Below are positions 1-63,848 of a DNA stretch of 64,000 nucleotides, one piece after another (position 1 is the stretch's first letter; each line of letters starts with the position of its first letter). The stretch lies in IMG/VR virus record IMGVR_UViG_2880395615_000008, one strand, 5' to 3'. The notes beneath the pieces were generated by a model. The model searched no databases and was not told where the DNA came from. It saw nothing but the letters and a program-made list of their open reading frames with translations. Position numbers and translations under genes: made by a program. The stretch is from a virus. Taxonomy: Duplodnaviria > Heunggongvirae > Uroviricota > Caudoviricetes.

Positions 1-1584
<1,584 letters not shown>

Positions 1585-1589: not shown

Positions 1590-1964
1590 ATGGCAAAAGA
1601 TCTGAAAACACTGGCGCTGGCCAGACTGTCGGGGTTCCGTCATAAAACGGTGAAGGTGCCAGAATGGAGAAATGTCAGCGTGGTGCTGCGGGAGCCTTCG
1701 GCAGAGGCCTGGTATCTGTGGCAGGAAGTGCTCAATGGTGATGGAGAGGATGACGATACCCTGTCGGTGGTGGCGAAAACCCGCCGTAACCTGGAAGCGG
1801 ATGTGACGCTGTTCTGCGATGTCCTGTGTGATATTGACCTGCAACGGGTGTTCACTCCGGACGACCGTGAGCAGGTGCTGGCCGTCTATGGTCCGGTACA
1901 TGCCCGGTTGCTGCGTCAGGCACTGGAACTGATCGCTGATGCAGAGTCGGCCAGAAAAAAGTAG
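1590..1964 (+). CDS. Tail assembly chaperone (lambda G analogue)
   Basis: 124 aa; sits between major tail and tape measure genes; ends with slippery A_AAA_AAG immediately before stop. Confidence 0.75.
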   Translation: MAKDLKTLALARLSGFRHKTVKVPEWRNVSVVLREPSAEAWYLWQEVLNGDGEDDDTLSVVAKTRRNLEADVTLFCDVLCDIDLQRVFTPDDREQVLAVYGPVHARLLRQALELIADAESARKK

Positions 1965-2269
1965 CCCGCCCGGAAATTCGCTTTCTGATGCGACTTGCGC
2001 TCCGTCTGGGGCGCACCTTATCCGAACTGCGGCACAGCCTGAGTGCGAGCGAGGCGATGATGTGGATGGAGTTTGACAGGGTGTCCCCGCTGGGTGATGA
2101 GCGCGGGGATATCCGTAATGCACAGATCGTGAAAGCGGTTTTCGGGGCACAGGGGATGAATGTTGCACTGAAGGACGCCATGCTCTGCTGGGGCGAGGAT
2201 GAGGATAAGCCGGAGGTGGATCCGTTTGCGGCGCTGGAAGACGCGCTGAGCCTTGCAGCAATGTCATAA
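1955..2269 (+). CDS. T segment of tail assembly chaperone GT fusion, reached by -1 programmed ribosomal frameshift
   Basis: Slippery heptamer AAAAAAG at 1955-1961; -1 frame continues KKVARPEIRFLMRLALRLG... = ORF 1988..2269. Confidence 0.7.
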   Translation, partial: KKVARPEIRFLMRLALRLGRTLSELRHSLSASEAMMWMEFDRVSPLGDERGDIRNAQIVKAVFGAQGMNVALKDAMLCWGEDEDKPEVDPFAALEDALSLAAMS

Positions 2270-5300: not shown

Positions 5301-5587
5301 ACTTTGCGTTTGCAAAAGGGGCCGGGCTGATGGGGGAAGCCGGACCTGAAGCCATTATGCCCCTGACCCGGGCGGCGGATGGCTCGCTGGGCGTACGCGC
5401 CGTGGGCAGTATGAACGGCAGTGCTGGTCTGGTGTATTCCCCGGTCTACCACATCGCCATTCAGAATGACGGGGCTAACGGACAGATAGGGCCGGAGGCG
5501 GCAGGCAGTCTTGTGCAGCTGATTGACCAGCGGGTGCAGGCGGTGATGCTGTCCATGCGACGTGACGGAGGAATGCTGAGTGGCTGA
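2321..5587 (+). CDS. Tail tape measure protein (1088 aa)
   Basis: Long Ala/Gln-rich coiled-coil ORF after G/GT; C-terminus resembles lambda H C-terminus (...QNDGANGQIGPEAAG...GGMLSG). Confidence 0.9.
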   Translation: MATLRELIIKISANSQSFQSEIQRASRMGSEYYRTLQNGGRQAAAAAREQRRALAELNSQLTEIRGSAVGMAGAFAGAFATGHLISLADEWSSVNARLKQASQSSDEFSSSQKVLMDISQRTGTAFSDNAALFARSAASMREYGYSAGDVLKVTEAISTGLKISGASTAEAGSVITQFSQALAQGVLRGEEFNSVNESGDRIIRALAAGMGVARKDLKAMADDGKLTADKVVPALISQLGVLRDEYAAMPETVSDGITKVENAFMAWVGGANEASGATKTLSGVLNGVAGQIDNVATAAGALVAVGVARYFGNMAAGVGKVTTELIAAKSGTVALAAAQADAAVQVQRKAAADALAAERAWQLAQAELALARNSSAEALATQNAVAKRRAMIVANAALVQSNQAVAASRKALENATSVTGMLKSGAASLLSLVGGISGLLMLGAGAWYTVYQNQEQARESARQYASTIDEIRAKVPGMTLPELADNEGKTREALEEQNRLIAEQESKVRGLKTQIADYQRWLQENPQGGSGVEIITHGLAEATGKLAVEQSRLTQMQEKAKSVQEALASLEYNRVARIREEAAEQNRAYQALLQMNVQHTEFNRLLGLGNELLQQRQGLVNVPLRLPQATLDDKQQSALTKTERELALSRLKGEEKERVRLGYAADDLGFVGDPYQEARQRYISNALEAWRNNEANKPKSRGGKSETEKAEDSFSRLLKQQKEQLALAGQYTELAKLKYQTAQGELKTLTEMQKQELLRNATLIDQQKIREQLRSREETLKNENAAARASNDAELLGYGQGERARERMRELQQIRDSFRQKDADLQSQYQTGDNSEDFYRQALAQNAQYLSERLKEQEAFYAESDVQRADWQKGLQEGFSNWVDNASDYASQAAQLATEGISGMVNNITEMLNGNKVEWRSWASSVLQEISKVLMNAAIVNGIKTAANGMSGAGGFLGSIGDWLGGAVVNAKGGVYTSANLSAYSNSIVDTPTYFAFAKGAGLMGEAGPEAIMPLTRAADGSLGVRAVGSMNGSAGLVYSPVYHIAIQNDGANGQIGPEAAGSLVQLIDQRVQAVMLSMRRDGGMLSG

Positions 5588-5921
5588 GATAAAAACGCTG
5601 CATCTGGTCCCGCGTGAAGGGATGCAGGTGAGTGAGAAGCCGTCGGTGGTGAGGGTGCGGTTTGGTGACGGTTATGAACAGCGCCGCCCCACAGGGCTGA
5701 ATCCTCAACTGAAGACGTTTCAGGCGGTGTTCCGGGTGACGGATGAGTCAACCCGGCGCTGGCTGGATGAATTTTTATCCTGGCATGGTGGTTACCGTGC
5801 CTTTTTGTGGCGACCGCCGAAACATAACCGGACGGTGAGGGTGGTGTGCCGGGAGTGGAGCGTCACGGATAACGCCCGGTACAGTGATTTCAGCTGTACG
5901 ATTGAGCAGGTGGTGAACTGA
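5580..5921 (+). CDS. Minor tail protein M
   Basis: 113 aa, overlaps tape measure stop; position and size as lambda M; ...FLWRPP... motif shared with second copy. Confidence 0.8.
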   Translation: MAEIKTLHLVPREGMQVSEKPSVVRVRFGDGYEQRRPTGLNPQLKTFQAVFRVTDESTRRWLDEFLSWHGGYRAFLWRPPKHNRTVRVVCREWSVTDNARYSDFSCTIEQVVN

Positions 5922-6619
5922 TGCAGAATATTCATGAAGAAAGCCTGAACGAGTCGGTTAAATCAGAGCAGTCACCGCGGGTGGTGCTCTGGGAAATTGA
6001 CCTGACGGTGCAGGGCGGTGAGCGGTATTTTTTCTGTAATGAGCTGAATGAAAAAGGGGAGCCGGTGACCTGGCAGGGGCGTGAATATCAGGCGTACCCG
6101 ATTGAGGGCAGCGGCTTTGAGATGAACGGAAAGGGCAGCAGTGCCCGCCCGTCGCTGACGGTGTCCAATCTTTTCGGCCTTGTCACCGGGATGGCGGAGG
6201 ATTTGCAGAGCCTGGTGGGGGCCACGGTGGTCCGCCGCCGGGTGTATGCCCGTTTTCTGGATGCGGTGAATTTTGTGGCAGGCAATCCTGAGGCAGACCC
6301 TGAGCAGGAGCTGACGGACCGGTGGGTGGTGGAGCAGATGTCATCGCTGACGGCCATGACGGCCTCGTTTGTGCTGGCGACACCGACGGAGACGGACGGG
6401 GCGCTGTTTCCCGGTCGCATCATGCTGGCGAACACCTGTATGTGGGATTACCGGGGCGATGAATGCGGGTATAACGGTCCGGCAGTGGCGGATGAGTTCG
6501 ACAACCCCACCACGGATATCCGGAAGGACAGATGCAGTAAATGCATGCGCGGGTGTGAGATGCGCGGCATGGCGGTCAATTTTGGCGGTTTCCTTTCCAT
6601 CAATAAACTTTCGCAGTAA
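5921..6619 (+). CDS. L: Minor tail protein L
   Basis: 232 aa, same length as lambda L; C-terminal cysteine cluster; about 98% identical to the copy at 57379..58077. Confidence 0.9.
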   Translation: MQNIHEESLNESVKSEQSPRVVLWEIDLTVQGGERYFFCNELNEKGEPVTWQGREYQAYPIEGSGFEMNGKGSSARPSLTVSNLFGLVTGMAEDLQSLVGATVVRRRVYARFLDAVNFVAGNPEADPEQELTDRWVVEQMSSLTAMTASFVLATPTETDGALFPGRIMLANTCMWDYRGDECGYNGPAVADEFDNPTTDIRKDRCSKCMRGCEMRGMAVNFGGFLSINKLSQ

Positions 6620-6629
6620 ATCCTGTTTT

Positions 6630-7373
6630 ATGACACAGACTGAATCAGCGATTCTGGCGCATGCCCGGCGGTGTGCGCCTGCGGAGTCGTGCGGCTTCGT
6701 GATAAGCACGCCGGAGGGGGAACGGTATATCCCTTGTGTGAATATCTCTGCAGAGCCGGAGGCGTATTTTCGTATCGCACCGGAAGACTGGCTGCGGGCA
6801 GAGATGCAGGGGGAGATTGTGGCACTGGTCCACAGTCATCCCGGTGGTCTGCCCTGGCTGAGCGAGGCCGACCGGCGGCTGCAGATAAAAAGTGCACTGT
6901 TCTGGTGGCTGGTCTGCCGGGGGGAAATTCATAAATTCCGCTGTGTGCCACATCTGACAGGACGGCGCTTTGAGCACGGGGTGACGGACTGTTACACGCT
7001 GTTCCGGGATGCCTACCATCTGGCGGGAATTGATATGCCGGATTTTGAGCGTGAGGATGACTGGTGGCGCAACGGTCAGAACCTTTACCTGGACAATATG
7101 GCGGTCACAGGCTTTTACCGGGTGCCCCTGTCCTCTGCACAGGCGGGCGATATCCTGCTGTGCTGCTTTGGCGCATCGGTGGCCAATCATGCCGCCATAT
7201 ACTGCGGCAACGGTGAGCTGCTTCACCATCTGCCTGAACAACTGAGTAAACGGGAGAGGTATTCCGAAAAATGGCAACGACGAACGCATTCAGCCTGGCG
7301 TCACCGCCACTGGCACGTATCTGCCTTCACGGGGATTTACAACGATTTGGCCGCCGCCTCAGCCTGTATGTGA
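6630..7373 (+). CDS. K: Tail assembly protein K (NlpC/P60 + JAB/MPN-like)
   Basis: Starts MTQTESAILAHARRCAPAESCGF... at ATG 6630; frame stays open to 7373, overlapping I by 103 nt. Confidence 0.8.
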   Translation: MTQTESAILAHARRCAPAESCGFVISTPEGERYIPCVNISAEPEAYFRIAPEDWLRAEMQGEIVALVHSHPGGLPWLSEADRRLQIKSALFWWLVCRGEIHKFRCVPHLTGRRFEHGVTDCYTLFRDAYHLAGIDMPDFEREDDWWRNGQNLYLDNMAVTGFYRVPLSSAQAGDILLCCFGASVANHAAIYCGNGELLHHLPEQLSKRERYSEKWQRRTHSAWRHRHWHVSAFTGIYNDLAAASACM

Positions 7374-7948
7374 ACACGGCAGCGGAAGCCATCCGTGCCC
7401 TGTCGATGCAGATGCCGGGATTCCGCCGTCAGATGAACGAAGGCTGGTACCAGATACGTATTCGCGGTGAGGACACGGCACCGGAGGCGGTGTACGCCCG
7501 TCTTCACGAACAGCTGGGTGAGGGAACGGTCATCCACATTGTGCCGCGACTGGCCGGGGCCGGAAAGGGTGGACTGCAGATTGTGCTGGGGGCGGCAGCC
7601 ATCGTGGGCTCTTTCTTCACTGCCGGGGCATCAATGGCGTTATGGGGTTCAGCCCTGGCAGCCGGTGGTTTTTCTGCCACCACGATGCTGTTTTCACTGG
7701 GGGCCAGCATGATACTGGGTGGTGTGGCTCAGATGCTTGCCCCGAAGGCAAAAACACCGGATTACCGCGCAACGGATAACGGCAGACAGAACACGTACTT
7801 TTCCTCACTGGACAACATGATTGCTCAGGGGAACCCGATGCCGGTGCCTTACGGTGAAATGCTGGTTGGTTCACGACGGATATCCCAGGACATCAGCACC
7901 CGTGATGAAGGCGGAGACGGGAAAGTGGTGGTTATCGGGCGGGGATGA
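7271..7948 (+). CDS. I: Tail assembly protein I
   Basis: 225 aa; ...ARICLHGDLQRFGRR... and C-terminal ...VVVIGRG resemble lambda I. Confidence 0.85.
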   Translation: MATTNAFSLASPPLARICLHGDLQRFGRRLSLYVNTAAEAIRALSMQMPGFRRQMNEGWYQIRIRGEDTAPEAVYARLHEQLGEGTVIHIVPRLAGAGKGGLQIVLGAAAIVGSFFTAGASMALWGSALAAGGFSATTMLFSLGASMILGGVAQMLAPKAKTPDYRATDNGRQNTYFSSLDNMIAQGNPMPVPYGEMLVGSRRISQDISTRDEGGDGKVVVIGRG

Positions 7949-8188
7949 AAATAAAAAAATCCCGCAGAGTTAGCGGAGCTGCGGGAGAGAACGATGAAGA
8001 TTAACGTTATGGAGTTATTTTTCAGGCATCAAAAAAGTAATGCAGCGTCATTATTGCGGCTACAGGCAATTGCCGGAAATGTGAAGAGTTTCAGAAATTT
8101 TATTCCGTCATGACACAGGCACCCTCCGGGGTGCCTGTTGTTTTCTGGCATAAACAGATTCAGACATCAGACAGGAGAGGGGGACAGA

Positions 8189-11100
8189 GTGGGTAAAGGG
8201 GGCGGCAAGGGGCACACGCCGGTTGAGGCAAAGGACAATCTTAAGTCCACGCAGATGATGAGCGTGATTGACGCCATTGGTGAAGGGCCGATTGAAGGTC
8301 CGGTGAAGGGGCTGCAGAGTATCCTGGTGAACAAAACCCCGCTGACGGACACGGACGGTAATCCTGTGATACATGGTGTGACAGCGGTCTGGCGCGCCGG
8401 GGAGCAGGAGCAGACACCACCTGAAGGCTTTGAGTCCTCCGGGGCGGAAACCGCACTGGGCGTGGAAGTGACGAAGGCAAAGCCGGTGACGCGCACCATT
8501 ACGTCCGCGAACATTGACCGCCTGCGGGTCACCTTCGGGGTGCAGTCACTGTTGGAGACCACCTCAAAGGGCGACCGTAATCCCTCTTCTGTCCGACTGC
8601 TGATTCAGTTACAGCGTAACGGTAACTGGGTGACGGAAAAGGATGTCACCATTAACGGCAAGACCACCTCGCAGTTTCTGGCGTCGGTGATTCTGGATAA
8701 TCTGCCTCCCCGTCCTTTTAACATCCGGATGGTCCGGGAGACAGCGGACAGCACCCCGGACCAGCTGCAGAATAAGACGCTCTGGTCGTCATACACCGAA
8801 ATCATCGATGTGAAACAGTGCTACCCGAACACGGCGATTGTGGGGCTGCAGGTGGATGCGGAGCAGTTTGGCGGTCAGCAGATGACGGTGAACTACCATA
8901 TCCGCGGTCGCATCATCCAGGTACCGTCAAACTATGACCCGGAAAAACGCACGTACAGCGGCATCTGGGACGGCAGCCTGAAACCGGCATACAGCAACAA
9001 CCCGGCCTGGTGCCTGTGGGACATGCTGACTCACCCGCGCTACGGCATGGGAAAACGTCTGGTGGCGGCGGATGTTGACAAGTGGGCGCTGTATGCCATC
9101 GGGCAGTACTGCGACCAGACGGTCCCGGATGGTTTCGGGGGCACAGAGCCGCGGATGACCTTTAATGCGTACCTGTCACAACAGCGTAAGGCGTGGGACG
9201 TTCTCAGTGATTTCTGCTCGGCGATGCGCTGTATGCCGGTATGGAACGGCCAGACGCTGACGTTCGTTCAGGACCGCCCGTCGGATGTGGTGTGGCCGTA
9301 CACCAACTGCGATGTGGTGGTGGATGATAACGGCGTGGGGTTTCGCTACAGCTTCAGCGCCCTGAAGGACCGCCACACGGCGGTGGAGGTGAATTACACC
9401 GACCCGCAGAACGGCTGGCAGACCTCCACGGAACTGGTGGAAGACCCGGAAGCCATACTGCGCTACGGGCGCAACCTGCTGAAGATGGATGCGTTCGGTT
9501 GCACCAGTCGCGGTCAGGCCCACCGTGCCGGGCTGTGGGTGATAAAGACCGGACTGCTGGAAACGCAGACGGTGGATTTCACGCTCGGGTCACAGGGGCT
9601 GCGTCACACACCCGGTGACATTATTGAAATCTGTGATAACGACTATGCCGGGACCATGACCGGCGGACGTATCCTGTCCATCGATGCCGCCAGCCGCACC
9701 CTGACACTGGACCGTGAGGTGACCCTGCCGGAGACAGGTGCCGCCACGGTGAACCTGATTAACGGCAGCGGTAAGCCGGTGAGCGTGGCCATCACTGCAC
9801 ACCCCGCGCCGGACCGGATACAGGTCAGCACCCTGCCTGATGGTGTGGAGACATACGGTGTATGGGGACTCTCCCTGCCGTCACTGCGTCGTCGCCTGTT
9901 CCGCTGTGTTTCCATCCGGGAAAACACGGACGGTACCTTTGCCATCACGGCAGTGCAGCATGTGCCGGAGAAAGAAGCCATCGTGGATAACGGGGCCAGC
10001 TTTGAGCCGCAGTCAGGCACCCTGAACAGCGTTATCCCACCGGCAGTGCAGCACCTGACGGTGGAGGTGAGTGCAGCTGACAGCCAGTATCTGGCGCAGG
10101 CGAAATGGGACACGCCGCGGGTGGTGAAGGGCGTGCGCTTCAGTCTGCGCCTGACCAGTGGAAGCGGTCAGGACAGCCGTCTGGTGACCACCGCCATCAC
10201 TGCGGATACAGAGCATTGTTTCAGTGGTCTGCCGCTCGGGGAATACACCCTGACAGTCAGGGCAATTAACAGTTATGGCCAGCAGGGGGAACCGGCCACC
10301 ACCACGTTCAGGATTAATGCACCTGCGGTACCCGCCACGATTGAGCTGACACCGGGCTATTTTCAGATAACAGCGGTCCCGCGTCTTGCGGTGTATGACC
10401 CGACGGTACAGTTTGAGTTCTGGTTTTCGGAAACGCGGATTACCGATATCAGGCAGGTTGAAACCACAGCCCGCTACCTTGGCACGGGGCTGTACTGGAT
10501 AGCCGCCAGTATCAATATCAAACCGGGCCATGATTATTACTTTTATATCCGCAGTGTGAACACCGTTGGCAAATCGGCATTTGTGGAGGCTGTTGGCCAG
10601 CCGAGTGATGATGCATCCGGCTATCTGGATTTTTTCAAAGGAGAGATAGGGAAAACCCATCTGGCTCAGGAGTTGTGGACTCAGATTGATAACGGTCAGC
10701 TTGCGCCTGACCTGGCGGAAATCAGAACGTCCATCACGGATGTCAGTAATGAAATCACGCAGACCGTCAATAAGAAACTGGAAGACCAGAGTGCAGCGAT
10801 CCAGCAGATACAGAAGGTTCAGGTTGATACAAATAATAATCTGAACAGCATGTGGGCTGTGAAGCTGCAACAGATGAAGGACGGACGCCTTTATATTGCG
10901 GGTATCGGTGCCGGTATTGAGAATACGCCAGCAGGAATGCAGAGTCAGGTGCTGCTGGCGGCAGACAGGATTGCGATGATTAATCCTGCGAATGGCAACA
11001 CAAAGCCGATGTTTGTTGGTCAGGGCGATCAGATATTCATGAACGACGTGTTCCTGAAACGCCTGTTTGCGGTGAGTATCACGTCATCCGGCAACCCCCC

Positions 11101-11665
11101 GACGTTTTCCCTGACGCCGGAAGGGAAGCTGACAGCCAGGAACGCGGATATCAGCGGAGCAATTACCGCGAATACCGGCACGCTCAATAATGTCACCATT
11201 AACGAGAACTGTGTCATCAGAGGGAAACTGTCTGCAAACCAGATTGAAGGCGACCTGGTGAAGACGGTGGGGAAAGCCTTTCCCCGGAATAACAGTTATG
11301 CCAGCGGGACGGTAACCGTCACAGTTTACGATGACCAGGGCTTCGACCGGCAGATCATCATTCCCCCGGTGCTGTTTCGCGGGACGAAACACCAGAATTT
11401 CAACAGCCCGAATCAGCAGTCGTACTGGTATTCCACCTGTAAGCTGCAGGTGCTGAAGAACGGGGTTGAGATTTTCCATGAACCGGCAACGGATGTCAGC
11501 CGGGTGTTCTCATCGGTGATAGATATGCCGGCAGGGCGGGGTCATGTCACCCTGACGTTTAATGTGTCGTCGGCCGGTGCGAACAACTGGACGCCGACAA
11601 CGTACATCAGTGATTTACTGGTTGTGGTCATGAAAAAATCCACAGCAGGGATCAGTATCAGCTGA
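8189..11665 (+). CDS. J: Tail tip / host specificity protein J
   Basis: GTG start at 8189 ([22 protein letters not shown]... matches lambda J N-terminus MGKGSSKGHTP...); RBS AGGAGAGGGGGA upstream; about 1158 aa. Confidence 0.95.
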
Positions 11666-11674
11666 CGGTTTATT

Positions 11675-11710
11675 AACCCGGACGGGCACCTCAGGAGGTG
11701 CCTTTTTTAT
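11675..11710 (+). terminator. Rho-independent terminator after J
   Basis: GGCACC-TCAGGA-GGTGCC hairpin followed by TTTTTT. Confidence 0.6.
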
Positions 11711-11738
11711 TGACTGAAAACGAGAGGTCATCATGCGA

Positions 11739-13064
<1,326 letters not shown>

Positions 13065-13681
13065 TGAAAGCGGACACGGTGCATTTTCCGTGGGATATGC
13101 TCAGGTTCACCCGGGCGGCGTACCGGCATTGTCCGGTACCGGTGCGCGTGCAGGTGATTTAAAAGGGATTAATGTGAAATACCGTTATGAGTTCACGGAT
13201 CACCTGGGCGGCATTGTCGCGCTGAGTTATGCATCGGTGAAGAAAAGTGACACGATGAAGACGGGTGAAAATACCTTCCATTATGAAAGCCTGCGCGGTC
13301 GTTATGTCAGTCTGATGGCCGGCCCTGTCTGGCAGCTCAGTGAGCGGGTCAGTCTCTATGGCATGGCCGGGATGGCGTACACCCGCTGGTCTGACAGTGT
13401 TCAGGATTACCGGCGTGATGAAGTGAAACCGGGGTATGTGAAGGAGACCACCACCGCCAGTGATGGTCATACTGCGCGTCATCTGTCGCCGGCCTGGAAT
13501 GCCGGGATTCAGTTCAGTCCCGTAGAGACGGTGGTTATTGACCTTGCTTATGAAGGCTCCGGCAGTGGCGACTGGCGCACTGACGGTTTCATCGTGGGTG
13601 TCGGTTATAAGTTCTGATTAGCCAGGTAACACAGTGTTATGACAGCCCGCCGGTTCAGGCGGGCTTTTTTGTGGGGTGAAT

Positions 13682-32333: not shown

Positions 32334-32746
32334 GTGAATTAGCTATCAGGCTTCAATTGTCGCTGGCATTCACATCAAAGGAGAAGAGCATGGAAATAAA
32401 ACCAGAAGATGAGTTAAGCAATATCGTTTTATTTCCGGTAAAAGAGGATGACCCACGTAATCAGGTTAATTTTCTTTATGAGCCATCGGAAAGAGCATAT
32501 TGTCATCACGCCTCTGTTCGGGTTGACGAAAAAGAGCGTCAGGTCCGCTGTAAAATCTGCGGTGCAGTTGTGGAGCCATTTGACTGGATGCTCTCTGTGG
32601 CGAAAAGAGAAACCAGACTGGCAGATGATGTAAGGATCTTGCGCCAGGAGGAACGGGAAAGGCGGAGAAATATAGAAAAGCTAATTCAGATTGAGCGTAA
32701 CGTGAAAGCGCGGATACGCAGGGTGACAAAATCCAGAACTGAATAA
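32330..32746 (+). CDS. Hypothetical protein (about 138 aa), basic C-terminus
   Basis: ORF overlapping previous stop; CHH...C..C cysteine/histidine cluster. Confidence 0.45.
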   Translation: MSELAIRLQLSLAFTSKEKSMEIKPEDELSNIVLFPVKEDDPRNQVNFLYEPSERAYCHHASVRVDEKERQVRCKICGAVVEPFDWMLSVAKRETRLADDVRILRQEERERRRNIEKLIQIERNVKARIRRVTKSRTE

Positions 32747-32794
32747 TTAAATTTAGCTCTGTTAAAAATTTAATCCTTAACCGGAGGTATATCA

Positions 32795-33007
32795 ATGTCA
32801 AACGCACAGAAAGTTATTAACGCTGAAAAATATAACGAGTGGGTGAAAAAGTTCTCAGAGCAGATTTTTAAAATTACTGGCGACGAGAATGCGGCAAAAA
32901 ATGAATTAGAGCCGTGGACACCTGAAGGTGTCGACCCAAATTATTGCTGGTGGGATGTTGATCCAGTTGATGCTGCAAATGAAGCTATGAGTTATCACAA
33001 CGATTAA
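32795..33007 (+). CDS. Hypothetical protein (70 aa)
   Basis: ORF with GGAGG RBS. Confidence 0.45.
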   Translation: MSNAQKVINAEKYNEWVKKFSEQIFKITGDENAAKNELEPWTPEGVDPNYCWWDVDPVDAANEAMSYHND

Positions 33008-33042
33008 TGTCAGGAGGCCGCCCGAAAGGGCGGTAATGAAAA

Positions 33043-33414
33043 GTGACTGAATTAACCAAAGAGAAATTAATCGAAGAAGCCAAATTAAAAATAGCGATTG
33101 CGAAATGCTACCCCAATTCAGGGATGGCACGGGTAGAGGGCGAGTTATTCAAAATTGCACTGGCATCGCTGGAAGCAGAACCGATAGCGTGGGAATGCGG
33201 TGAAAACATAATCCTGTTTAACCCTGACACAGTTGAAGCATACGCAAAACGTGCGGAAATATCACCTAAACCACTATTCTCCGCGCCGCCAGCGCTGGTA
33301 GTGCCTGATAAGTTGCCGCGTGAATACAGAAACGGTTGGCCTCTTGCGTATAGTGATTATGCTGAAGGCTGGAACGACTGCCGCGAAGCCATGCTTCAGG
33401 GAGATAAATCATGA
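33043..33414 (+). CDS. Hypothetical protein (123 aa)
   Basis: ORF; no recognisable motif. Confidence 0.45.
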   Translation: MTELTKEKLIEEAKLKIAIAKCYPNSGMARVEGELFKIALASLEAEPIAWECGENIILFNPDTVEAYAKRAEISPKPLFSAPPALVVPDKLPREYRNGWPLAYSDYAEGWNDCREAMLQGDKS

Positions 33415-33773
33415 TTAATCGTATCAAGCTGGAGCACATCCTCGAATATGCCAGGCAGCAGAGGCATATTGGTCAGCATTGTAAAATTCCACCAGGAGAT
33501 ATGGTTGAAATCATGGAGATTGCCATGCGCAAGGCTGGCAATTCTCCGGTAACTCCGGATGGTTGGATAAGCTGTAGTGAGCGAATGCCGAATACCAAAA
33601 CAGCCGTTCTTGTTGCCGTGGAGTTTGACAGGAAAGGTGACTGGCGAATGAAATGGGCTACTTACATCCCGGGGCATCCTGACGCTAATGATGGGTGGAT
33701 AATTCCTGGTGCGTCGTGGAAACCGTCACACTGGATGCCGCTACCAGAACCGCCGCAGGAGGTGCGCCAATGA
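33411..33773 (+). CDS. DUF551-type phage protein (120 aa)
   Basis: ...DGWISCSERMP... and tryptophan-rich C-terminus typical of DUF551 as I recall it. Confidence 0.5.
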   Translation: MINRIKLEHILEYARQQRHIGQHCKIPPGDMVEIMEIAMRKAGNSPVTPDGWISCSERMPNTKTAVLVAVEFDRKGDWRMKWATYIPGHPDANDGWIIPGASWKPSHWMPLPEPPQEVRQ

Positions 33774-33853
33774 TCTGGCCTGAAGCCTTTGCAATTACAG
33801 GCGTTGCTATAGCTATTGATTTTTTAGTATATGTTATTTGTCGGTGGGGGTAA
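33770..33853 (+). CDS. Small hydrophobic peptide (27 aa)
   Basis: ATG overlaps upstream stop (ATGA); MIWPEAFAITGVAIAIDFLVYVICRWG; below ORF-track length cutoff. Confidence 0.35.
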   Translation: MIWPEAFAITGVAIAIDFLVYVICRWG

Positions 33854-33888
33854 AAACGTTCGCCGGGATTCACACCAAAGGAGGGAAT

Positions 33889-33993
33889 ATGTCGGATGAT
33901 ATTTCACTGGCAATGGAAGGTGCGCTGGCTGTTATTGCTGTTGTGGGCGTTTACTGCCTGGTTGTGTTTTTGATGGATCGACTAGGGAACTGA
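33889..33993 (+). CDS. Small hydrophobic peptide (34 aa)
   Basis: Strong RBS AAGGAGGG 5 nt upstream; MSDDISLAMEGALAVIAVVGVYCLVVFLMDRLGN. Confidence 0.4.
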   Translation: MSDDISLAMEGALAVIAVVGVYCLVVFLMDRLGN

Positions 33994-34238
33994 ATTCATT
34001 ACGATATGGGAATTCCCATATCGGGTAAAAACGGTTTGCGGTAAAGCGAGAGTTAAGTAGAATTGCTGCGGGTGCTTGAGGCTATCTGCCTCGGGCATGA
34101 ACACCAACGGCAGATAGAGAAAAGCCCCAGTTAACATTACGCGTCCGGCAAGACGCTTAACATTAATCTGAGGCCATATCTATGCTCTACACACGTAGGT
34201 TAGCCTCTTACGTGCCGAAAGGCAAGGAGAAGCAGGCT

Positions 34239-34394
34239 ATGAAGCAGCAAAAGGCGATGCTAATCGCCCTGATCGTCATCTGTTTAACCGTCATAGTGAC
34301 GGCACTGGTAACGAGGAAAGACCTCTGCGAGGTACGAATCCGAACCGGCCAGACGGAGGTCGCTGTCTTCACAGCTTACGAACCTGAGGAGTAA
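34239..34394 (+). CDS. hok: Hok/Gef-family type I toxin (51 aa; HokD/RelF-like)
   Basis: MKQQKAMLIALIVICLTVIVTALVTRKDLCEVRIRTGQTEVAVFTAYEPEE matches remembered HokD; upstream in-frame extension from 34182; terminator hairpin after the gene. Confidence 0.85.
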   Translation: MKQQKAMLIALIVICLTVIVTALVTRKDLCEVRIRTGQTEVAVFTAYEPEE

Positions 34395-34645
34395 GAGACC
34401 TGGCGGGGGAGAAATCCCTCGCCACCTCTGATGTGTCAGGCATCCTCAACGCACCCCACTTAACTCGCTTCGGCGGTTTTTTGTTGTTTATTTTCGGTGA
34501 GCGTGATGCATCTGGTTGTACCGATGTGGCTGGCTGATTCTGTTATTCAGGTGGTTTATTGCTGTTGATTGGCATGTCTTCACGGCTAGAATCGAGGCTC
34601 TTAAGTAGCGCGCAGGGATAAGAGGGATGGCCCCCATAAGGGGAG

Positions 34646-34840
34646 GTGTTTATAGTTCATGGGATTTTTGTTATGAACGATAAGGAATTAATTGCTGCGC
34701 TTTCTATACCAGGTAATTATGAAGTAATAGTTCTTGGGAATGGTGAGTTTATCGTAATGCCATTGCCATCTGATGTTATTCTGATCAGCAAAGAATCGCA
34801 TGCGGATTCGGTCAGTTACTTCAGCATTAAAAGAGACTAG
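34646..34840 (+). CDS. Hypothetical small protein
   Basis: ORF only; start uncertain (GTG 34646 or ATG 34673). Confidence 0.3.
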   Translation: MFIVHGIFVMNDKELIAALSIPGNYEVIVLGNGEFIVMPLPSDVILISKESHADSVSYFSIKRD

Positions 34841-34905
34841 ATTATAATGCTGTAGTAAAGCCAGCCTGAACAACTGGCGTCTGTCGCACCATTACGAGGA
34901 TAGTA

Positions 34906-35184
34906 GTGGTGCATTACAAGAAACTTAACAATTCTGATAATTCAGCCGTCTTTGCCAGCAGGCACGGGCGGTGTTCTCATGCATTCAAATCTGACTGGTT
35001 CCAGCATGACCCATGCACTGAAGAACAGGCCGAATGGCTGATTCAGTGCTACCGCAGACGTGGTTACGAGTTTCAGAAAGATCTCAGCTTCGATCGTCGT
35101 CACTGGATAATCTCCGCCAGGCTCCCTTATTCCGAACGCCCACCGCGTCCGTCCCGCACATTCCAGCAGCGCATCTGGAGGTAA
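34906..35184 (+). CDS. Hypothetical protein (92 aa)
   Basis: ORF ending 1 nt before the start of the YdfU-like gene. Confidence 0.4.
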   Translation: MVHYKKLNNSDNSAVFASRHGRCSHAFKSDWFQHDPCTEEQAEWLIQCYRRRGYEFQKDLSFDRRHWIISARLPYSERPPRPSRTFQQRIWR

Positions 35185-35185
35185 C

Positions 35186-36235
35186 GTGCGGGTATTACTT
35201 CGACCTGTTCTGGTACCGGAACTCGGTCTGGTTATCGTTAAGCCAGGCCGTGAATCAATGTCAGTATTCCATAACGGCAGAATATTGGTGGAGCCGGAAC
35301 CGAAAAACATGCGCGGTCTGCCGTCCGGAGTCGTTCCTGCCGTTCGCCAGCCGCTGGCAGAGGATAAAACATTACTGCCATTTTTCAGCGATGAGCGGGT
35401 TATTCGTGCAGCAGGTGGTGCAGGTGCACTGTCTGACTGGTTATTACGTCACGTGAAATCCTGCCAGTGGCCACACGGCGATTATCATCACAGCGAAACA
35501 GTCATTCACCGTTATGGTACCGGCGCGATGGTGTTGTGCTGGCACTGCGACAACCAGCTGCGCGACCAGACATCAGAATCACTCGATCAACTTGCTCAGC
35601 AGAATCTGGTTGCCTGGATGATTGATGTCATCCGTCACGCAATAAGCGGTACGCAGGAGAGGGAGTTATCGCTGGCCGAATTATCCTGGTGGGCGGCCTG
35701 CAATCAGGTGGTGGATGCACTACCTGAGGCAGTAGCGCGTCGTTCGCTGGGATTACCAGCGGAAAAAATCCGCTCCGTATACCGTGAGAGTGACATCGTA
35801 CCGGGAGAACAGACAGCCATCAGCATACTGAAGCAGCGCACAAAAAATATTGCGCTGCCACTTCACGTCCACCAGCAACAAAATCCACCACAGAAAAAAA
35901 CGGTTGTCAGTATCGCCGTTGATCCGGAGTCTCCTGAATCGTTCATGAAACGACCTAAACGTCGCCGCTGGGTAAATGAGAAATACACACGCTGGGTAAA
36001 GACACAGCCGTGTGCGTGTTGTGGTAAGCCAGCCGACGATCCCCATCACCTGATTGGTCATGGTCAGGGCGGAATGGGGACAAAATCTCACGATATTTTC
36101 ACGCTACCGCTGTGTCGGGAGCATCACAACGAGCTTCATGCGGATCCGCTGGCGTTCGAAGAAAAGCATGGTTCTCAGGTTGATTTAATTTTTCGTTTTC
36201 TTGATCACGCCTTTGCAACTGGCGTGCTTGGGTAA
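35186..36235 (+). CDS. YdfU-like DUF968 protein with C-terminal HNH-like Cys/His motif (349 aa)
   Basis: C-terminus ...CACCGKPADDPHHLIGHGQGGMGTKSHDIFTLPLCREHHNELH...; GTG start; same length and position as Qin ydfU as I recall. Confidence 0.6.
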   Translation: MRVLLRPVLVPELGLVIVKPGRESMSVFHNGRILVEPEPKNMRGLPSGVVPAVRQPLAEDKTLLPFFSDERVIRAAGGAGALSDWLLRHVKSCQWPHGDYHHSETVIHRYGTGAMVLCWHCDNQLRDQTSESLDQLAQQNLVAWMIDVIRHAISGTQERELSLAELSWWAACNQVVDALPEAVARRSLGLPAEKIRSVYRESDIVPGEQTAISILKQRTKNIALPLHVHQQQNPPQKKTVVSIAVDPESPESFMKRPKRRRWVNEKYTRWVKTQPCACCGKPADDPHHLIGHGQGGMGTKSHDIFTLPLCREHHNELHADPLAFEEKHGSQVDLIFRFLDHAFATGVLG

Positions 36236-39073: not shown

Positions 39074-39324
39074 TATTGCAGAATTAACCGGGTATCAGGT
39101 ACGCCCCGAAAATTTTAAATGTCTCACAATTCAGACGGTTGACAGTTGTCTGGTTTGCGGGGAGTTTGTTAAAAGAAACTGGCATGGTGAATCCCCCTGA
39201 GCGGAGGGGCATATCAGCGCAGGTGTTTCTACTCTATCCTTTCTGTGCGGGTTCAGGTGCTGATACTGAACTCACCGGGAGGCACCCGGCACCATGCATA
39301 TGGTTAACAGACACGTAGCGAAGC

Positions 39325-39350
39325 CCCTCTCCGGAGGGGCTTTTTTTATG
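39325..39350 (+). terminator. Intrinsic terminator-like hairpin (GCCCCTCTCCGGAGGGGC + T7)
   Basis: Perfect GC-rich stem followed by TTTTTTT; a second hairpin AAAAAAAGCCCGCG...CGCGGGC at about 39355-39385. Confidence 0.55.
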
Positions 39351-39576
39351 GGCAAAAAAAGCCCGCGCTGGGAGACGCGGGCGGCAAGGAATAAACAACA
39401 AAACGTGAAGTAATATTTCAGCTGGCGAATAATACCCCATGGTAATCACTCTGCGCAACTGCGCGGCCTTTTTCGAATTGCGGGCTGTAAGTCTCCCTTC
39501 TGCCATTGTCCTGTAACTTCCGGACTTCAGCCCGCTCTTTATCTGATTCAGTACACTATCCCGGCCGGGAGGATTC

Positions 39577-43949: not shown

Positions 43950-44417
43950 ATGAACCGTGTTCTGTGTGTGGTGATTATTGTCCTGGCGGTTGGCTGTGGT
44001 GCGCTGTGGCTGGCAACAAACCATTACCGTGACAACGCGCTCACCTACAAAGCGCAGCGTGATAAAAAAGCCAGAGAGCTGGAACAGGCGAATGCCACCA
44101 TTACTGACATGCAGGTGCGCCAGCGTGATGTTGCTGCGCTCGATGCAAAATACTCGAGGGAGTTAGCCGATGCGAGAGCTGAAAATGAAACTCTGCGTGC
44201 TGATGTTGCCGCTGGTCGTAAGCGCCTGCGGATCAACGCCACCTGCTCCGGTACCGTGCGTGAAGCCACCGGCACCTCCGGCGTGGATAATGCAACCGGC
44301 CCCCGACTGGCAGACACCGCTGAACGGGATTATTTCATCCTCAGAGAACGGTTGATGACAATGCAGAAGCAGCTGGAAGGGGCACAGGACTATATCCGCA
44401 CTCAGTGCCTGAACTAA
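43950..44417 (+). CDS. Rz: Spanin inner-membrane subunit Rz
   Basis: ...[45 protein letters not shown]... very close to lambda Rz. Confidence 0.9.
44170..44355 (+). CDS. Rz1: Spanin outer-membrane lipoprotein Rz1, embedded in +1 frame within Rz
   Basis: Lipobox LVVSAC and proline-rich mature region ...[33 protein letters not shown]. Confidence 0.85.
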
Positions 44418-44667
44418 GTTTTGCTGATGCGCCGTATCGTCACCGTATTCTTGCATTAACAGAGACCGCAGCCCGACAGGGAGACTCCTCTGCGAGAGTG
44501 TGCGGGGATAATCAAAAACGATACACACCGGGGTTTACCGCGTTAACGGAGCGCGGTGTTGTCCCCTCATAGTCGCCAGTCCGGTGCGATGGTGGAAGAA
44601 ACTGGATTTTGTTGCAAATGATAACCATTATCATTTTTTGCGGGTCCTCCTGGTGGGGTGGGCCTGA

Positions 44668-44690
44668 ACACGGGGCGGGCGGCGCGGAAA
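44668..44690 (+). other. cos site (cosN region) of lambda-like packaging
   Basis: CGGGGCGGGCGGCGCG resembles lambda cosN (GGGCGGCGACCT); located between Rz and the Nu1-like gene, followed by AT-rich cosB-like DNA. Confidence 0.45.
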
Positions 44691-44831
44691 AAGGCGCATT
44701 TTTTGATTTTTATGGCACCATCACCACCAGTGTAAGTTGTTGATATATAGAAAAATAAAAATTTTTAGTGTCGAGTCTGGTTGTTTTTTGTTCATCACTG
44801 GTGTGTGTTTACATAATTTTCAGGGGGAGTT

Positions 44832-45308
44832 ATGGATCGTGAATTAAAAAATCTGCATCTGAATATTTCCCAACTGGCCGCATTATCCGGTGCTCATCGA
44901 CAGACTGTTGCGGCTCGGGTAAAAAACATAAGCCCAGCCGGTGGTCATGAGAGCAATCTCAAACTGTACCGACTGACAGATATCCTTGCCGAGCTGATGA
45001 AAGCTCCTCTGCCTGTAGATAACGAGGAAATGGATCCTCATGCGCGTAAAGCATGGTACCAGTCAGAACGTGACCGACTGAAATTTGAGCAGGAAACTGG
45101 TCAGCTTGTGCCAGTCAGTGATGTCAGGCGGTCCTTTTCTGTCGTGGTGAAAGCGATAGTTCAGGTACTGGAAACCTGGCCTGACCGGCTGGAGAGGGAC
45201 AGGGGGTGGACCGCATCACAACTGAATGAAGTACAGATTGTGGTTGATGAGATCCGCGACACACTGGAAAAGGCAGTCATTGACTGTTGTGATGAGGCCG
45301 ATATGTGA
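44832..45308 (+). CDS. Terminase small subunit (Nu1-like)
   Basis: N-terminal HTH ...LNISQLAALSGAHRQTVAARV...; directly precedes large terminase. Confidence 0.75.
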   Translation: MDRELKNLHLNISQLAALSGAHRQTVAARVKNISPAGGHESNLKLYRLTDILAELMKAPLPVDNEEMDPHARKAWYQSERDRLKFEQETGQLVPVSDVRRSFSVVVKAIVQVLETWPDRLERDRGWTASQLNEVQIVVDEIRDTLEKAVIDCCDEADM

Positions 45309-47428
45309 ATCAGGTGAACGAGAGCCATAGCCGCGCATCCGATATCTGGCGCGAAGTGGCCTCGCTGTTTCGCCCACCCAGCCGGTTACCAGTAGCGGAA
45401 GCCATCAGGCGTTATATGCGGGTTCCACGGGGAGCCAATACTTCCGGTCCGTGGGAGTCATCGCTGACGCCCTATATGATTGACCCCATTAATACATTAT
45501 CAGCCCGTGAATATGACGCGGTGGTGTTTGTGGGACCTGCGCGAACCGGGAAAACCGAAGGGCTGATTGATGGCTGGATTGTGTACGGCATCATCTGTGA
45601 TCCGGCGGATATGCTGGTGGTGCAGATGACTGAGACGAAGGCGCGTGAGCATTCCAGAACGCGTCTTTCCAGGACGTTTCGCCACAGTCCGGAGGTCAGC
45701 AAGCGCCTCAGTCCTTCCCGTAATGACAACAACGTCCACGATAAAATGTTTCTTGACGGCTCCTTCCTGAAGATTGGCTGGCCGTCGATCACCGTCTTTT
45801 CCTCTTCGGATTACCGTCGTGTGGCGCTGACGGATTATGACCGTTTCCCTGAAAACGTGGACGGGGAAGGGGATGCCTTCACGCTGGCCTCAAAGCGTAC
45901 CACCACCTTTATGTCCTCGGGGATGACCCTGGTCGAGAGTTCACCGGGGCGGGATATCACCGATACCAAATGGCGTTGTGGTGGCGCACATGAGGCACCG
46001 CCAACAACGGGGATCCTGTCACTGTATAACCGGGGAGACCGCCGCCGGTGGTACTGGCCGTGTCCGCACTGCGGGGAATATTTTCAGCCGGTGATGGATA
46101 ACATGACCGGATACCGGAATAACCCGGATTTTGTGGCTGCCGGTCAGGCTGCCCGTCTGATGTGTCCGCATTGTCGCGGGCTGATCGCCCCTGAGCAGAA
46201 ACGCGAACTGAATAACCAGGGGATCTGGCTTCGTGAAGGTGAACGGGCGGCGGCGGACGGCAGTATCACCGGAACGCCACGAAACTCCCGGATTGCGTCA
46301 TTTTGGATGGAGGGGCCAGCTGCGGCGTTTCAGACCTGGGAACAACTGATTTTTAAACTGCTGGCGGCAGAAGAAGAGTATGAGCGAACCGGCAGTGAAG
46401 AGACCCTGAAAGCGGTGGTGAACACCGATATCGGACGACCCTATCTGCCCCGTTCAGCCACGGAACAGCGTAAAAGTGAACTGCTTGAACAGCGTGCCGA
46501 GCCGTTTCCCCGGCGATCTGTGCCGGATGGTGTGCGTTTTATTGAGGCAACGGTTGACGTACAGGGCGGTAAAAATCGCCGTTTTGTTGTGCAGATCACC
46601 GGATACGGAGAGCAGGGGGAACGCTGGATTGTTGATCGCTACAACATCCGGCATTCACTGCGCTGCAGTCCCAACGGTGAAAGTCTGCCGGTTGATCCGG
46701 CGGCATATCCGGAGGACTGGGATTTGTTGCTGACGGATGTGTTCCATAAAACATGGCCGCTGGCTTCTGATCCGGATGTGCGCATGCGTCTGATGGCCAT
46801 GGCGGTGGATACGGGAGGGGAAGCCGGGGTGACAGATAACGCCTATCGTTTCTGGCGTCGTTGCCGGAGTGACGGACTGGGCAACAGGGTGTTTCTGTTC
46901 AAGGGGGATGGACTTCGCCGTGACAGGCTGATTAACCGAACCTTCCCGGATAATACCGGCAGAAGTGCCCGCCGTGCCAGAGCCAGTGGCGATGTCGCGC
47001 TGTGGCTGGTTCAGACGGATGCGTTTAAGGATCGTGTAAATAATGCCCTGTGGCGTGACACACCAGGGCCGAACTATATCCACTTTCCCGACTGGCTGGG
47101 GCGGTGGTTTTACGATGAGCTGACCTATGAAGAGCGCGGCAGTGACGGAAAATGGCGAAAACCGGGCAGGGGCGCTAACGAAGCGTTTGACCTGCTGGTT
47201 TATGCGGATGCGCTTGCCGTTCTGCATGGTTACGAAAAGATCCGCTGGCCCTCCGCACCGGACTGGGCACAGCGGGAAACGTGGCTCGTCTTCCCGCAGG
47301 AGCGTTCTGGTGAAACGGTATCCCCGGAACTGACGGCCGGGGCAGAAAAACGCCGTCGCCGGAAGAAAAAACTGCGGACGGAGCGTGCGGAAGATAATCC
47401 ATGGATAACATCAGGAGGCTGGTTGTGA
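45305..47428 (+). CDS. Terminase large subunit (lambda A-like)
   Basis: 707 aa; Walker A-like VFVGPARTGKTEG; Cys cluster WYWPCPHCGEY...CPHCRG. Confidence 0.9.
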   Translation: MNQVNESHSRASDIWREVASLFRPPSRLPVAEAIRRYMRVPRGANTSGPWESSLTPYMIDPINTLSAREYDAVVFVGPARTGKTEGLIDGWIVYGIICDPADMLVVQMTETKAREHSRTRLSRTFRHSPEVSKRLSPSRNDNNVHDKMFLDGSFLKIGWPSITVFSSSDYRRVALTDYDRFPENVDGEGDAFTLASKRTTTFMSSGMTLVESSPGRDITDTKWRCGGAHEAPPTTGILSLYNRGDRRRWYWPCPHCGEYFQPVMDNMTGYRNNPDFVAAGQAARLMCPHCRGLIAPEQKRELNNQGIWLREGERAAADGSITGTPRNSRIASFWMEGPAAAFQTWEQLIFKLLAAEEEYERTGSEETLKAVVNTDIGRPYLPRSATEQRKSELLEQRAEPFPRRSVPDGVRFIEATVDVQGGKNRRFVVQITGYGEQGERWIVDRYNIRHSLRCSPNGESLPVDPAAYPEDWDLLLTDVFHKTWPLASDPDVRMRLMAMAVDTGGEAGVTDNAYRFWRRCRSDGLGNRVFLFKGDGLRRDRLINRTFPDNTGRSARRARASGDVALWLVQTDAFKDRVNNALWRDTPGPNYIHFPDWLGRWFYDELTYEERGSDGKWRKPGRGANEAFDLLVYADALAVLHGYEKIRWPSAPDWAQRETWLVFPQERSGETVSPELTAGAEKRRRRKKKLRTERAEDNPWITSGGWL

Positions 47429-47637
47429 GCACAGAAGAAGCCAGAGAAATGATACAGCGGTACCGTGAAGCGGAAATGGCCGTACTGGAGGGAAAGTCTG
47501 TCACCTTCAACGGGCAGCAACTGACGCTGGAAAGCCTTTCTCAGATCCGCGCCGGACGTCAGGAGTGGGAACGCAGGCTTGCCGCGATGGTGAGCCGCAG
47601 GCGGGGAAAACCGGGATTTAAACTGGCGAGGTTTTAA
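47401..47637 (+). CDS. Head-tail joining protein W-like
   Basis: Small ORF between terminase and portal; ...MAVLEGKSVTFNGQQLTLESLSQIRAG... parallels lambda gpW; true start may be 47449. Confidence 0.6.
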   Translation: MDNIRRLVVSTEEAREMIQRYREAEMAVLEGKSVTFNGQQLTLESLSQIRAGRQEWERRLAAMVSRRRGKPGFKLARF

Positions 47638-51108: not shown

Positions 51109-51195
51109 TAACCGCGTTATCACAATCACTGCCCGAAAGGGCTTTTTTTATGCCTGAAAAACAGCCCCACAGGGGCTGTCCGGAGAAACAGCATT

Positions 51196-51522
51196 ATGGC
51201 GAAAAATTTTGTACAGGACGGTACCACCATTGAACTGGTGAATGCCGGAGATCAGACCATCCTGAGCGGTGCTGCGGTGGTGGTCGGCAGTATGGTGGCC
51301 GTGGCCATTACCGATATTCCTGCCGGTGAGGCCGGTGACGGTTTTGCCGAAGGCGTGTTCCTGCTGCCCAAACAGTCTGCTGACGACATTCAGTCCGGCG
51401 CGGTGGTTTATCTGAAGGACGGGGTTGTGCAGCTGGCTGCAGACGGTGCGGTGGCAGCGGGGGTAGCCTGGGAAAATGCCCCTGCAAACAGCGCCACTGT
51501 GGCGGTAAAAATCAATGTCTGA
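51196..51522 (+). CDS. Small Gly/Ala-rich head protein (DUF2190-like; putative decoration/cement protein)
   Basis: 108 aa immediately after capsid gene. Confidence 0.4.
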   Translation: MAKNFVQDGTTIELVNAGDQTILSGAAVVVGSMVAVAITDIPAGEAGDGFAEGVFLLPKQSADDIQSGAVVYLKDGVVQLAADGAVAAGVAWENAPANSATVAVKINV

Positions 51523-51796
51523 TCTGTTTACGCGAATGTGTTGCCGGATGGACGTGGCGACCGTTCGGGTGATGGGCAAACAGGCGGAGATTAACGGCGT
51601 CGTGTACGACGTGATGCCGGAGGAAGAGTCCGCGGAGATGGGGGCGCTTTCGGGCAGCCAGTTGTCACTGGTGGTGTTTTCAGCCCGGTACCGTCCGGCC
51701 CGTCATGATGTTGTTGTGTTTGCGGGGCGCACACTGACGGTGACCCGTTATGACACGTACAACGGTAAACCCCGGATTTTTGTCGAACAGGAATGA
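51515..51796 (+). CDS. Putative head-tail connector/adaptor protein
   Basis: 93 aa between head and tail-completion genes. Confidence 0.4.
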   Translation: MSDLFTRMCCRMDVATVRVMGKQAEINGVVYDVMPEEESAEMGALSGSQLSLVVFSARYRPARHDVVVFAGRTLTVTRYDTYNGKPRIFVEQE

Positions 51797-52422: not shown

Positions 52423-52434
52423 CTGGGAGGGTGT

Positions 52435-52833: not shown

Positions 52834-52840
52834 GGACGAT

Positions 52841-53593: not shown

Positions 53594-53606
53594 ACGGAGG
53601 TAATAC

Positions 53607-54364: not shown

Positions 54365-54398
54365 CAGTTATTGATGGTATCAGAGGACATTTCAGGAG

Positions 54399-58077: not shown

Positions 58078-58087
58078 ATCCTGTTTT

Positions 58088-63123: not shown

Positions 63124-63189
63124 ATTTTATAACCCAGAACGGGCGTCAGAAATGACGCCTTTTTTATTGCAGAAAAGCGAGAGGTAATT

Positions 63190-63789: not shown

Positions 63790-63848
63790 TTAGTAACACA
63801 GCGTTATGACAGCCCGCCGGTTCAGGCGGGCTTTTTTGTGGAGAGGGT

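Follow-up and report, generated by a model that had tools for sequence, protein, structure and literature searches.

The 64,000-bp window analysed here (IMG/VR virus record IMGVR_UViG_2880395615_000008, Caudoviricetes) carries two sets of tail genes, one in each of two lambdoid prophages that lie in tandem. The distal part of the tail module, from the last bases of M through L, K and I into J, is present as two closely similar direct copies, whereas the upstream genes V, G, T and H and nearly all of M differ between the prophages (Table 1). Self-BLAST of the window returned a single long direct match between 5902-11737 and 57360-63194, with 89.4% identity over 5.85 kb. Aligning the two stretches without gaps, at a fixed distance of 51,458 bp, and profiling identity in 100-bp windows delimited within it a direct repeat of 4,391 bp with no indels and 205 mismatches, which contains the last 19 nt of M, the genes L, K and I, the I-J spacer and the first ~701-705 codons of J. 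Identity per 100-bp window is 48-57% upstream of 5893 and 84-100% in the block, and lies at 60-84% over the remainder of J, from 10293 on. An earlier note on this DNA had described two prophages with direct repeats of roughly 4.4 kb about 51 kb apart, placed the block at 5921-10300 and proposed the alignment that was run here; the repeats and their spacing are confirmed, and these coordinates proved correct to within 20 bp.

Table 1. Tail genes, repeat copies and prophage border in the window (positions in bp from its first letter)
Feature	Position	Strand	Basis
Repeat copy 1 (end of M, L, K, I, I-J spacer, J codons 1-~701; prophage 1)	5902-10292	+	Ungapped 95.33% identity to copy 2
Repeat copy 2 (matching genes, prophage 2)	57360-61750	+	Ungapped alignment to copy 1
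V1, major tail protein, 238 aa	868-1584	+	Pfam Phage_TTP_11/Phage_tail_2 + Ig_2
G1, chaperone	1590-1964	+	Pfam Phage_TAC_1
T1, chaperone	1988-2269	+	Pfam Phage_tail_T
H1, tape measure, HK97 type, 1088 aa	2321-5587	+	Pfam TMP_3, Phage_HK97_TLTM, Tape_meas_lam_C
M1, distal tail (adaptor ring) protein, 113 aa	5580-5921	+	Pfam Phage_min_tail
L1, hub protein	5921-6619	+	Pfam Phage_tail_L; 76% to lambda gpL
K1, JAB/MPN + NlpC/P60 tail assembly protein	6630-7373	+	Pfam Prok-JAB + NLPC_P60; 85% to lambda K
I1, tail tip insertion protein	7370-7948	+	Pfam Lambda_tail_I
I-J spacer, 240 bp	7949-8188 and 59407-59646		100% identical in both copies
J1, central tail fibre/host specificity, 1158 aa	8189-11665	+	Ig_J 609-712, Ig_J_second 714-816
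ompW 3' remnant, inter-prophage border	22228-22353		Mapped CB9615 annotation, strain 611 annotation
Prophage 2 integrase	22399-23529	-	Pfam integrase domains; border with prophage 1
V2, lambda-type major tail protein, 250 aa	52841-53593	+	Pfam Phage_TTP_12 + Big_2
G2, chaperone	53607-54029	+	Pfam Phage_TAC_2
T2, chaperone	54056-54364	+	Pfam Phage_tail_T
H2, lambda-type tape measure, 884 aa	54399-57053	+	Pfam TMP_2, Tape_meas_lam_C
M2, lambda-type distal tail protein, 109 aa	57050-57379	+	79.8% to lambda gpM of PDB 8iyk
L2	57379-58077	+	Protein comparison + Pfam
K2	58088-58831	+	Protein comparison + Pfam
I2	58828-59406	+	Protein comparison + Pfam
J2, 1158 aa	59647-63123	+	Pfam gpJ domains

At the protein level, the copies are 97.8% identical for L, 95.1% for K, 95.3% for I and 97.0% for residues 1-701 of J (87.0% for the whole of J). 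The figure of about 98% given earlier for this segment is therefore right for L and nearly so for the N-terminal part of J, too high for K and I, and well above the 95% found for the DNA. All open reading frames (ORFs) of both tail-tip copies are intact. Synonymous divergence (dS) in L, K, I and the J N-terminus is 0.13-0.21, with a ratio of nonsynonymous to synonymous divergence (dN/dS) of 0.07-0.15, which points to purifying selection on both copies. In J residues 714-900 dS reaches 1.4, and the nucleotide identity upstream of the block is at noise level. Since dS is low in the block compared with its flanks, the block has a much more recent common ancestor than the flanks.

On the left of the block the two prophages cannot be aligned up to 5901 and are nearly identical from 5902-5905 onwards, i.e. 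17-19 nt before the M stop codon; at 5902 a span of just 5 nt takes the identity from ~50% to 95%, and this step bears out the sharp mosaic boundary that had been proposed for the M/L junction, where the M stop codon and the L start codon overlap by one base. The right edge lies at ~10293-10330, corresponding to J residues ~702-714, and coincides with the Pfam border between Ig_J and Ig_J_second.

Both copies of the distal genes have the features of a lambda-type tail tip: the gene order M-L-K-I-J, matches of all products to the corresponding Pfam families and the full set of gpJ domains. The four cysteines that coordinate the [4Fe-4S] cluster in lambda gpL, C173, C182, C205 and C212 (PMC10721106), are kept in both L proteins, which have cysteines at 173, 182, 205, 208 and 212. 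Matches to the lambda tail structure were found for L (E=3e-123 to 8iyk_L) and for both M proteins (E=2e-55 for M2 and 4e-25 for M1, to 8iyk_M).

The proximal genes of the two prophages are much less alike. V1 and V2 share just 24% identity over 94 aa and belong to different tail-tube families of Pfam, each with an Ig-like domain, and the chaperones G1 and G2 also belong to different families, whereas T1 and T2 are members of one. The tape measures, whose lengths of 1088 and 884 aa had been given correctly before, are for the most part unrelated. The exception is the last ~230 residues of each, which are homologous (alignment score 255, compared with 43 +/- 7 for shuffled sequences); Tape_meas_lam_C was found in both, and both have the motif RDGGMLSG at the C-terminus or 4 residues from it (5400-5587 and 56870-57053). 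M1 and M2 are 44.5% identical over the full length and fall into one Pfam family. The description of V-G-T-H-M as unrelated between the prophages was thus too strong, in view of M, T and the C-terminus of H; the families of V, G and H do differ. A slippery heptamer, A AAA AAG, occurs at 1955 (G1/T1) and at 54005 (G2/T2), and T is in the -1 frame in both sets, open from 1940 and from 53993, respectively. The heptamer has the form X XXY YYZ and lies near the 3' end of G, so that a programmed -1 frameshift is predicted for both G/T pairs.

A tape measure with Phage_HK97_TLTM and a TAC_1 chaperone mark set 1 as an HK97-type shaft, and a tube protein with Phage_TTP_12 and Big_2 domains, a TAC_2 chaperone and a TMP_2 tape measure mark set 2 as a lambda-type shaft. 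Prophage 1 thus combines a shaft of HK97 type with a tip of lambda type, and prophage 2 is of lambda type throughout.

Similarity between the two sets thus follows a gradient along the operon, being absent or weak by BLASTP for V, G and most of H, moderate for the H C-terminus and M, and near identity from L onward. In the lambda tail, the hexameric ring of gpM has one face on the gpV tube and the other on the ring of gpL and gpJ, and the gpI trimer forms a plug on which, within the tip, the C-terminal helix of gpH rests (PMC10721106). The gradient fits these contacts, if the parts docking on the shared hub have to stay compatible with it; the homology of the H C-termini would fit docking on a shared I/J hub, and M probably segregates with the shaft as its adaptor. 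The joints at the M/L gene border and at the J domain border may be the survivors of selection among recombinants.

Beyond the right edge, the receptor-binding parts of the two J proteins differ. The last 199 aa of J2 (62521-63120) are 96% identical to the molecule 'A8 gpJ 713' of PDB 9wca, whereas the J1 C-terminus (11063-11662) is 77% identical to 9wca and 78% to J2. Neither C-terminus is of the LamB-binding lambda type, as they score ~190 bits to lambda J compared with 339-410 bits to 'A8 gpJ'. According to a preprint (10.1101/2025.02.28.640725), a gpJ-A8 chimera recognises OmpC of strain EDL933 instead of LamB, and J2 is probably OmpC-specific as well. The number 713 in the name that the depositor gave to the 9wca molecule falls near J residues ~702-714, where the two J proteins naturally begin to diverge. 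Similarity between the prophages returns, at 89%, in 13531-13830 compared with 63703-64000, where lom ends and the side tail fibre gene (Pfam phage_tail_N and collagen repeats) begins. The prophages thus have another segment in common beyond the J C-terminus and lom, in which they diverge.

The I-J spacer has a GC content of 45% (37% in its core), compared with 59% in the flanking genes. It contains a 39-aa ORF with a Shine-Dalgarno sequence (7994-8113) and terminator-like hairpins on the plus strand (8115-8138) and on the minus strand (7977-7961). This variant of the spacer is present in only 804 genomes, in at most 9 copies each, and 427 records have a copy at least 99% identical; in prophage 1 of the O157:H7 strain 611 the spacer is diverged and longer, and the ORF is shortened to 22 aa. 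The spacer could be a small functional moron, encoding a small RNA (sRNA) or a micro-protein and spreading via prophages of enterohaemorrhagic E. coli (EHEC). Rfam at gathering thresholds gave no match in the spacer, and two known kinds of prophage sRNA were rejected as candidates: the anti-sRNAs of EHEC (PMC4104026), which lie near PR' rather than in this spacer, and the multicopy prophage sRNA HnrS (PMC13502914), whose locus in Sakai prophage Sp9 lies between Rz and the gene that follows it. The flank of this locus has a counterpart of 95.6% identity in the window, at 44410-44613 behind Rz of prophage 2, but the HnrS sequence itself was not found anywhere in the window at up to 3 mismatches.

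Positions 743-22355 of the window are 99.9% identical to the ompW prophage of the O55:H7 strain CB9615, and positions 44427-64000 are ~99.9% identical to a prophage of strain 611 (100% over 56500-63500). At the border a remnant of ompW is followed by the integrase gene of prophage 2, which places the two prophages in tandem at ompW. This order recurs in strain 611, where a prophage 1 that carries effector genes precedes the ompW remnant, the integrase and prophage 2, and where both tail modules are present. The stretch 21314-36120 is contiguous with strain 611 at 99.94% over 14.8 kb, and the tandem junction region (14000-38000) is covered to 93-96% in at least eight complete genomes, strain 611 included. 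CB9615 carries only prophage 1 at ompW, and copy 1 is 100% identical there. None of the complete genomes in the collection that was searched fits the window over its full length. Between the tail fibre genes and ompW, the cargo is unlike that of strain 611, whose nleA, IS66, nleG and espM1 lie in non-aligning stretches. Rfam matches at gathering level in the early and late regions of prophage 2 were DicF (26905-26956, minus strand), sok (34070-34244, plus strand) and STnc100 (39153-39353, plus strand).

The tail module V1-J1 (11.9 kb) is flanked by two pieces of the insertion sequence (IS) ISEc31 of the IS3 family. One is located between J1 and lom1 (11738-12997), and the other is a 344-bp direct copy of its end, 100% identical, at 399-742, adjoining a truncated tail-completion gene, gp17, at 743. 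On its other side, this 344-bp piece adjoins the N-terminus of an IS30-like transposase (1-398, minus strand), which was recognised by Pfam as HTH_38; NCBIfam gave no match for the transposase fragment 1-346. In CB9615 the second ISEc31 copy is in the capsid gene instead. Prophage 1 has thus undergone another rearrangement here than in CB9615 and is probably defective. For lom1 (12979-13617), the start given in the CB9615 annotation maps to 12979, inside ISEc31, which ends at 12997, so the native lom start of prophage 1 has probably been displaced by the insertion. Two Rfam matches to isrC (552-674 and 12806-12928) fall inside the ISEc31 pieces.

The block itself is common across E. coli. It was matched in 4,508 of 5,426 complete E. 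coli genomes (83%), at 15,449 places, with a median of 3 copies per genome and a maximum of 14; CB9615 holds 9 copies, and genomes of the O55:H7/O157:H7 lineage hold 9-14. The repeat pair in the window is therefore not special. Each genome of this lineage has roughly ten near-identical copies of the block, which explains the breaks of short-read assemblies at prophage tails. The difficulty for such assemblies, which had been attributed to the pair, lies in this copy number instead.

Mismatches between the two copies in the window are clustered and leave exact runs of 365 bp (9134-9498) and 314 bp (7910-8223), compared with a random expectation of 122 bp for the longest run (P of a run of at least 314 bp ~5e-5). 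In the orthologous prophage 1 of strain 611 the patches of the block are arranged differently, with H-M still 97.5% identical. Such a patchwork is the signature of repeated exchange in a shared pool. The best overall explanation, which we consider very probable, is that a shared lambda-type tip cassette was joined to two shaft lineages by recombination in the prophage pool. According to this scheme, each of the two tandem ompW prophages, in an E. coli of the O55:H7/O157:H7 lineage, has a complete siphovirus tail operon. The distal cassette (L, K, I, the spacer and the N-terminal ~705 residues of J) would build the conical tip, both copies having come from one widely shared lambda-type pool, while the proximal cassette (V, G/GT, H and M) would build the shaft and derive from an HK97-like lineage in prophage 1 and a lambda-like one in prophage 2. 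Past recombination in the pool would have produced the left-hand joint, within the last 19 nt of M, and its position at a structural interface would have preserved it; the right-hand joint lies on the J domain border, beyond which the receptor-binding part differs between the prophages. The recombination history and the interchangeability of tips and shafts are deduced from sequence comparison, and some points weigh against this scheme. The recombination events were not seen directly, their history being read from identity patterns in a handful of loci, and the compatibility of an HK97-type shaft with this tip is suggested by the intact ORFs and by Shiga toxin (Stx) phages with the same combination. 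Moreover, prophage 1 is damaged upstream by IS elements in gp17 (1-742), and its tail genes may no longer be used.

The high identity of the copies might also have been kept by gene conversion between co-resident copies, that is, by concerted evolution rather than by independent acquisition from the pool. The exact tracts of 365 and 314 bp, set in sequence that otherwise diverges by ~5% and clustered far beyond chance, would agree with this. So would the stretch 9192-9392, in which the two copies are the same, whereas the orthologous prophage 1 of strain 611 is only 95.5% identical to copy 1. On the other hand, the overall dS of the block is too high for ongoing homogenisation, copy 1 is unchanged in CB9615, which has just this prophage at ompW, and the alleles of the exact tracts are widespread, with 518 and 427 records having a copy at least 99% identical. 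Because these alleles are so common across genomes, conversion between the resident copies was downgraded and is regarded as unlikely. Similarly doubtful is a more elaborate idea, in which the exact tracts, including the conserved spacer, reflect ongoing exchange that keeps co-resident tip cassettes interchangeable; the defective prophage 1 would borrow or donate tip parts, gpM would act as a lineage-specific adaptor and the spacer would be a moron.

An origin without any recombination, in which strong purifying selection simply gave the tip genes a much lower rate of evolution than the shaft genes, would agree with the low dN/dS of the block. However, purifying selection on proteins does not hold synonymous sites, and dS passes from 0.13-0.21 to 1.4 within J; identity steps up abruptly at 5902, and the shafts that share this tip belong to two different Pfam families, all of which makes this explanation extremely improbable. 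The same can be said of an assembly artefact, whether through collapse or duplication of a repeat or through chimeric joining of two strains. Such an error could be suspected because in the collection prophage 1 is best matched by the O55:H7 strain CB9615 and prophage 2 by the O157:H7 strain 611, and no single genome fits the whole window. Nevertheless, the copies differ at 205 sites and are set in different flanks, which excludes a collapsed or duplicated repeat; the junction is contiguous with the independently assembled genome of strain 611, which has both tail modules in equal order, and the junction region is found in at least 7 other complete genomes. Both copies are thus real, and recombination in the prophage pool is preferred as the source of the shared tip.

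Regarding its potential for rearrangement, the repeat pair resembles the inter-prophage repeats of O157 in being formed by homologous late-gene segments of lambdoid prophages sharing one chromosome. In O157:H7, large inversions and duplications are bounded by prophage repeats of at least 98% identity and at least 5 kb (PMC8743559). Against these thresholds (at least 98%, at least 5,000 bp and at least 2 copies), the pair in the window falls short, either as 4,391 bp at 95.33% or as 5.85 kb at 89.4%. A 47.7-kb deletion between adjacent O157 prophages took place via an 822-bp exact direct repeat in an antirepressor gene, and similar deletions between Sakai prophages Sp11 and Sp12 were mentioned by the same authors (PMC7430833); recombinant phages are also known to arise between Sakai prophages (PMC2669165). 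Exact direct repeats of at least 75 bp in adjacent prophages, the kind considered in PMC7430833, are present here as 11 runs, the longest of 365 and 314 bp. In comparison with the 822-bp exact repeat of the documented Sp11/Sp12-type pair, a 4.39-kb repeat of 95.3% identity, in which the longest exact run is 365 bp, is a weaker recombination substrate. The predicted deletion product, represented by a chimeric query (M1 to 9300 joined to 60759 to 63123), had no full-length match above 96.0% in the 5,426 genomes. The earlier proposal that the repeats are substrates for deletion or duplication thus has published precedent and exact runs of sufficient length in its favour, and the identity of 95.3% and the missing deletion product against it; deletion or duplication of the intervening 51 kb by this pair is plausible. 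Most of prophage 2 lies in this interval and, from prophage 1, it includes the type III effector genes nleH1-2 and nleF.

Taken as a whole, the original observation was right in substance and slightly overstated in two details, and what it describes is the known, ordinary mosaicism of lambdoid prophages of E. coli and EHEC. The locus is a clean illustration of phage mosaic joints located on structural interfaces, i.e. the gpM adaptor ring and the gpJ domain border. Neither the burden of repeat copies nor joints at interfaces are new, and the practical value of the case is modest.

Among known systems, both copies resemble the lambda tail tip (PDB 8iyk; PMC10721106) in gene order, in the Pfam family of every tip gene and in the G/T -1 frameshift signal. 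Lambda is 76-77% identical to them in L, 85-86% in K, 66-67% in I and 66-67% in J. The resemblance extends to the proximal genes of set 2, with ~80% identity for M2, 79.5% for V2, 41% for G2 and 50% for H2, whereas M1 is just 44.5% identical to lambda gpM, and the I-J spacer is 60 bp in lambda compared with 240 bp here.

The shaft of prophage 1 is closer to that of HK97. G1 is 62% identical to gp13 and H1 56.7% identical to the gp16 tape measure over 1109 aligned positions; the HK97 tape measure has 1089 aa, nearly the length of H1, in which Phage_HK97_TLTM was found. HK97 also has annotated morons at the I-J position, gp22 and gp23 (gp23 on the reverse strand), with terminators. In contrast, the M, L, K, I and J proteins of HK97 are only 32-36% identical to those of the window (34% for M1), and the HK97-type shaft on a lambda-type tip of prophage 1 is a combination absent from HK97 itself. 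We had expected that lambda and HK97 would provide a precedent for the M/L boundary, but this was not borne out, M-J of HK97 being 32-36% identical to lambda and to the window alike.

Further parallels are found among long-tailed Stx and other EHEC phages, and GenBank phage records already contain both tail modules in full. Several of them differ from the window in having a 1.7-kb arc/ant insert between L and K, and their J C-termini vary. The insert (~1.7 kb, two Arc-family genes and an antirepressor) occurs in the O157:H7 strain 493/89 (L003, 4637-6295), phage 1717 and Stx2a_WGPS4; it splits the block in some close relatives of prophage 1 and is missing from both copies in the window. The Stx2 phage 1717 and BP-4795 combine set 1 with the block, with 94-96% nucleotide identity over 94% of the 10.8-kb V1-J1 region, and CP-1639 and VT1-Sakai/Sp15 combine set 2 with the block, with 95-97% nucleotide identity over 96-100% of the 10.3-kb V2-J2 region.

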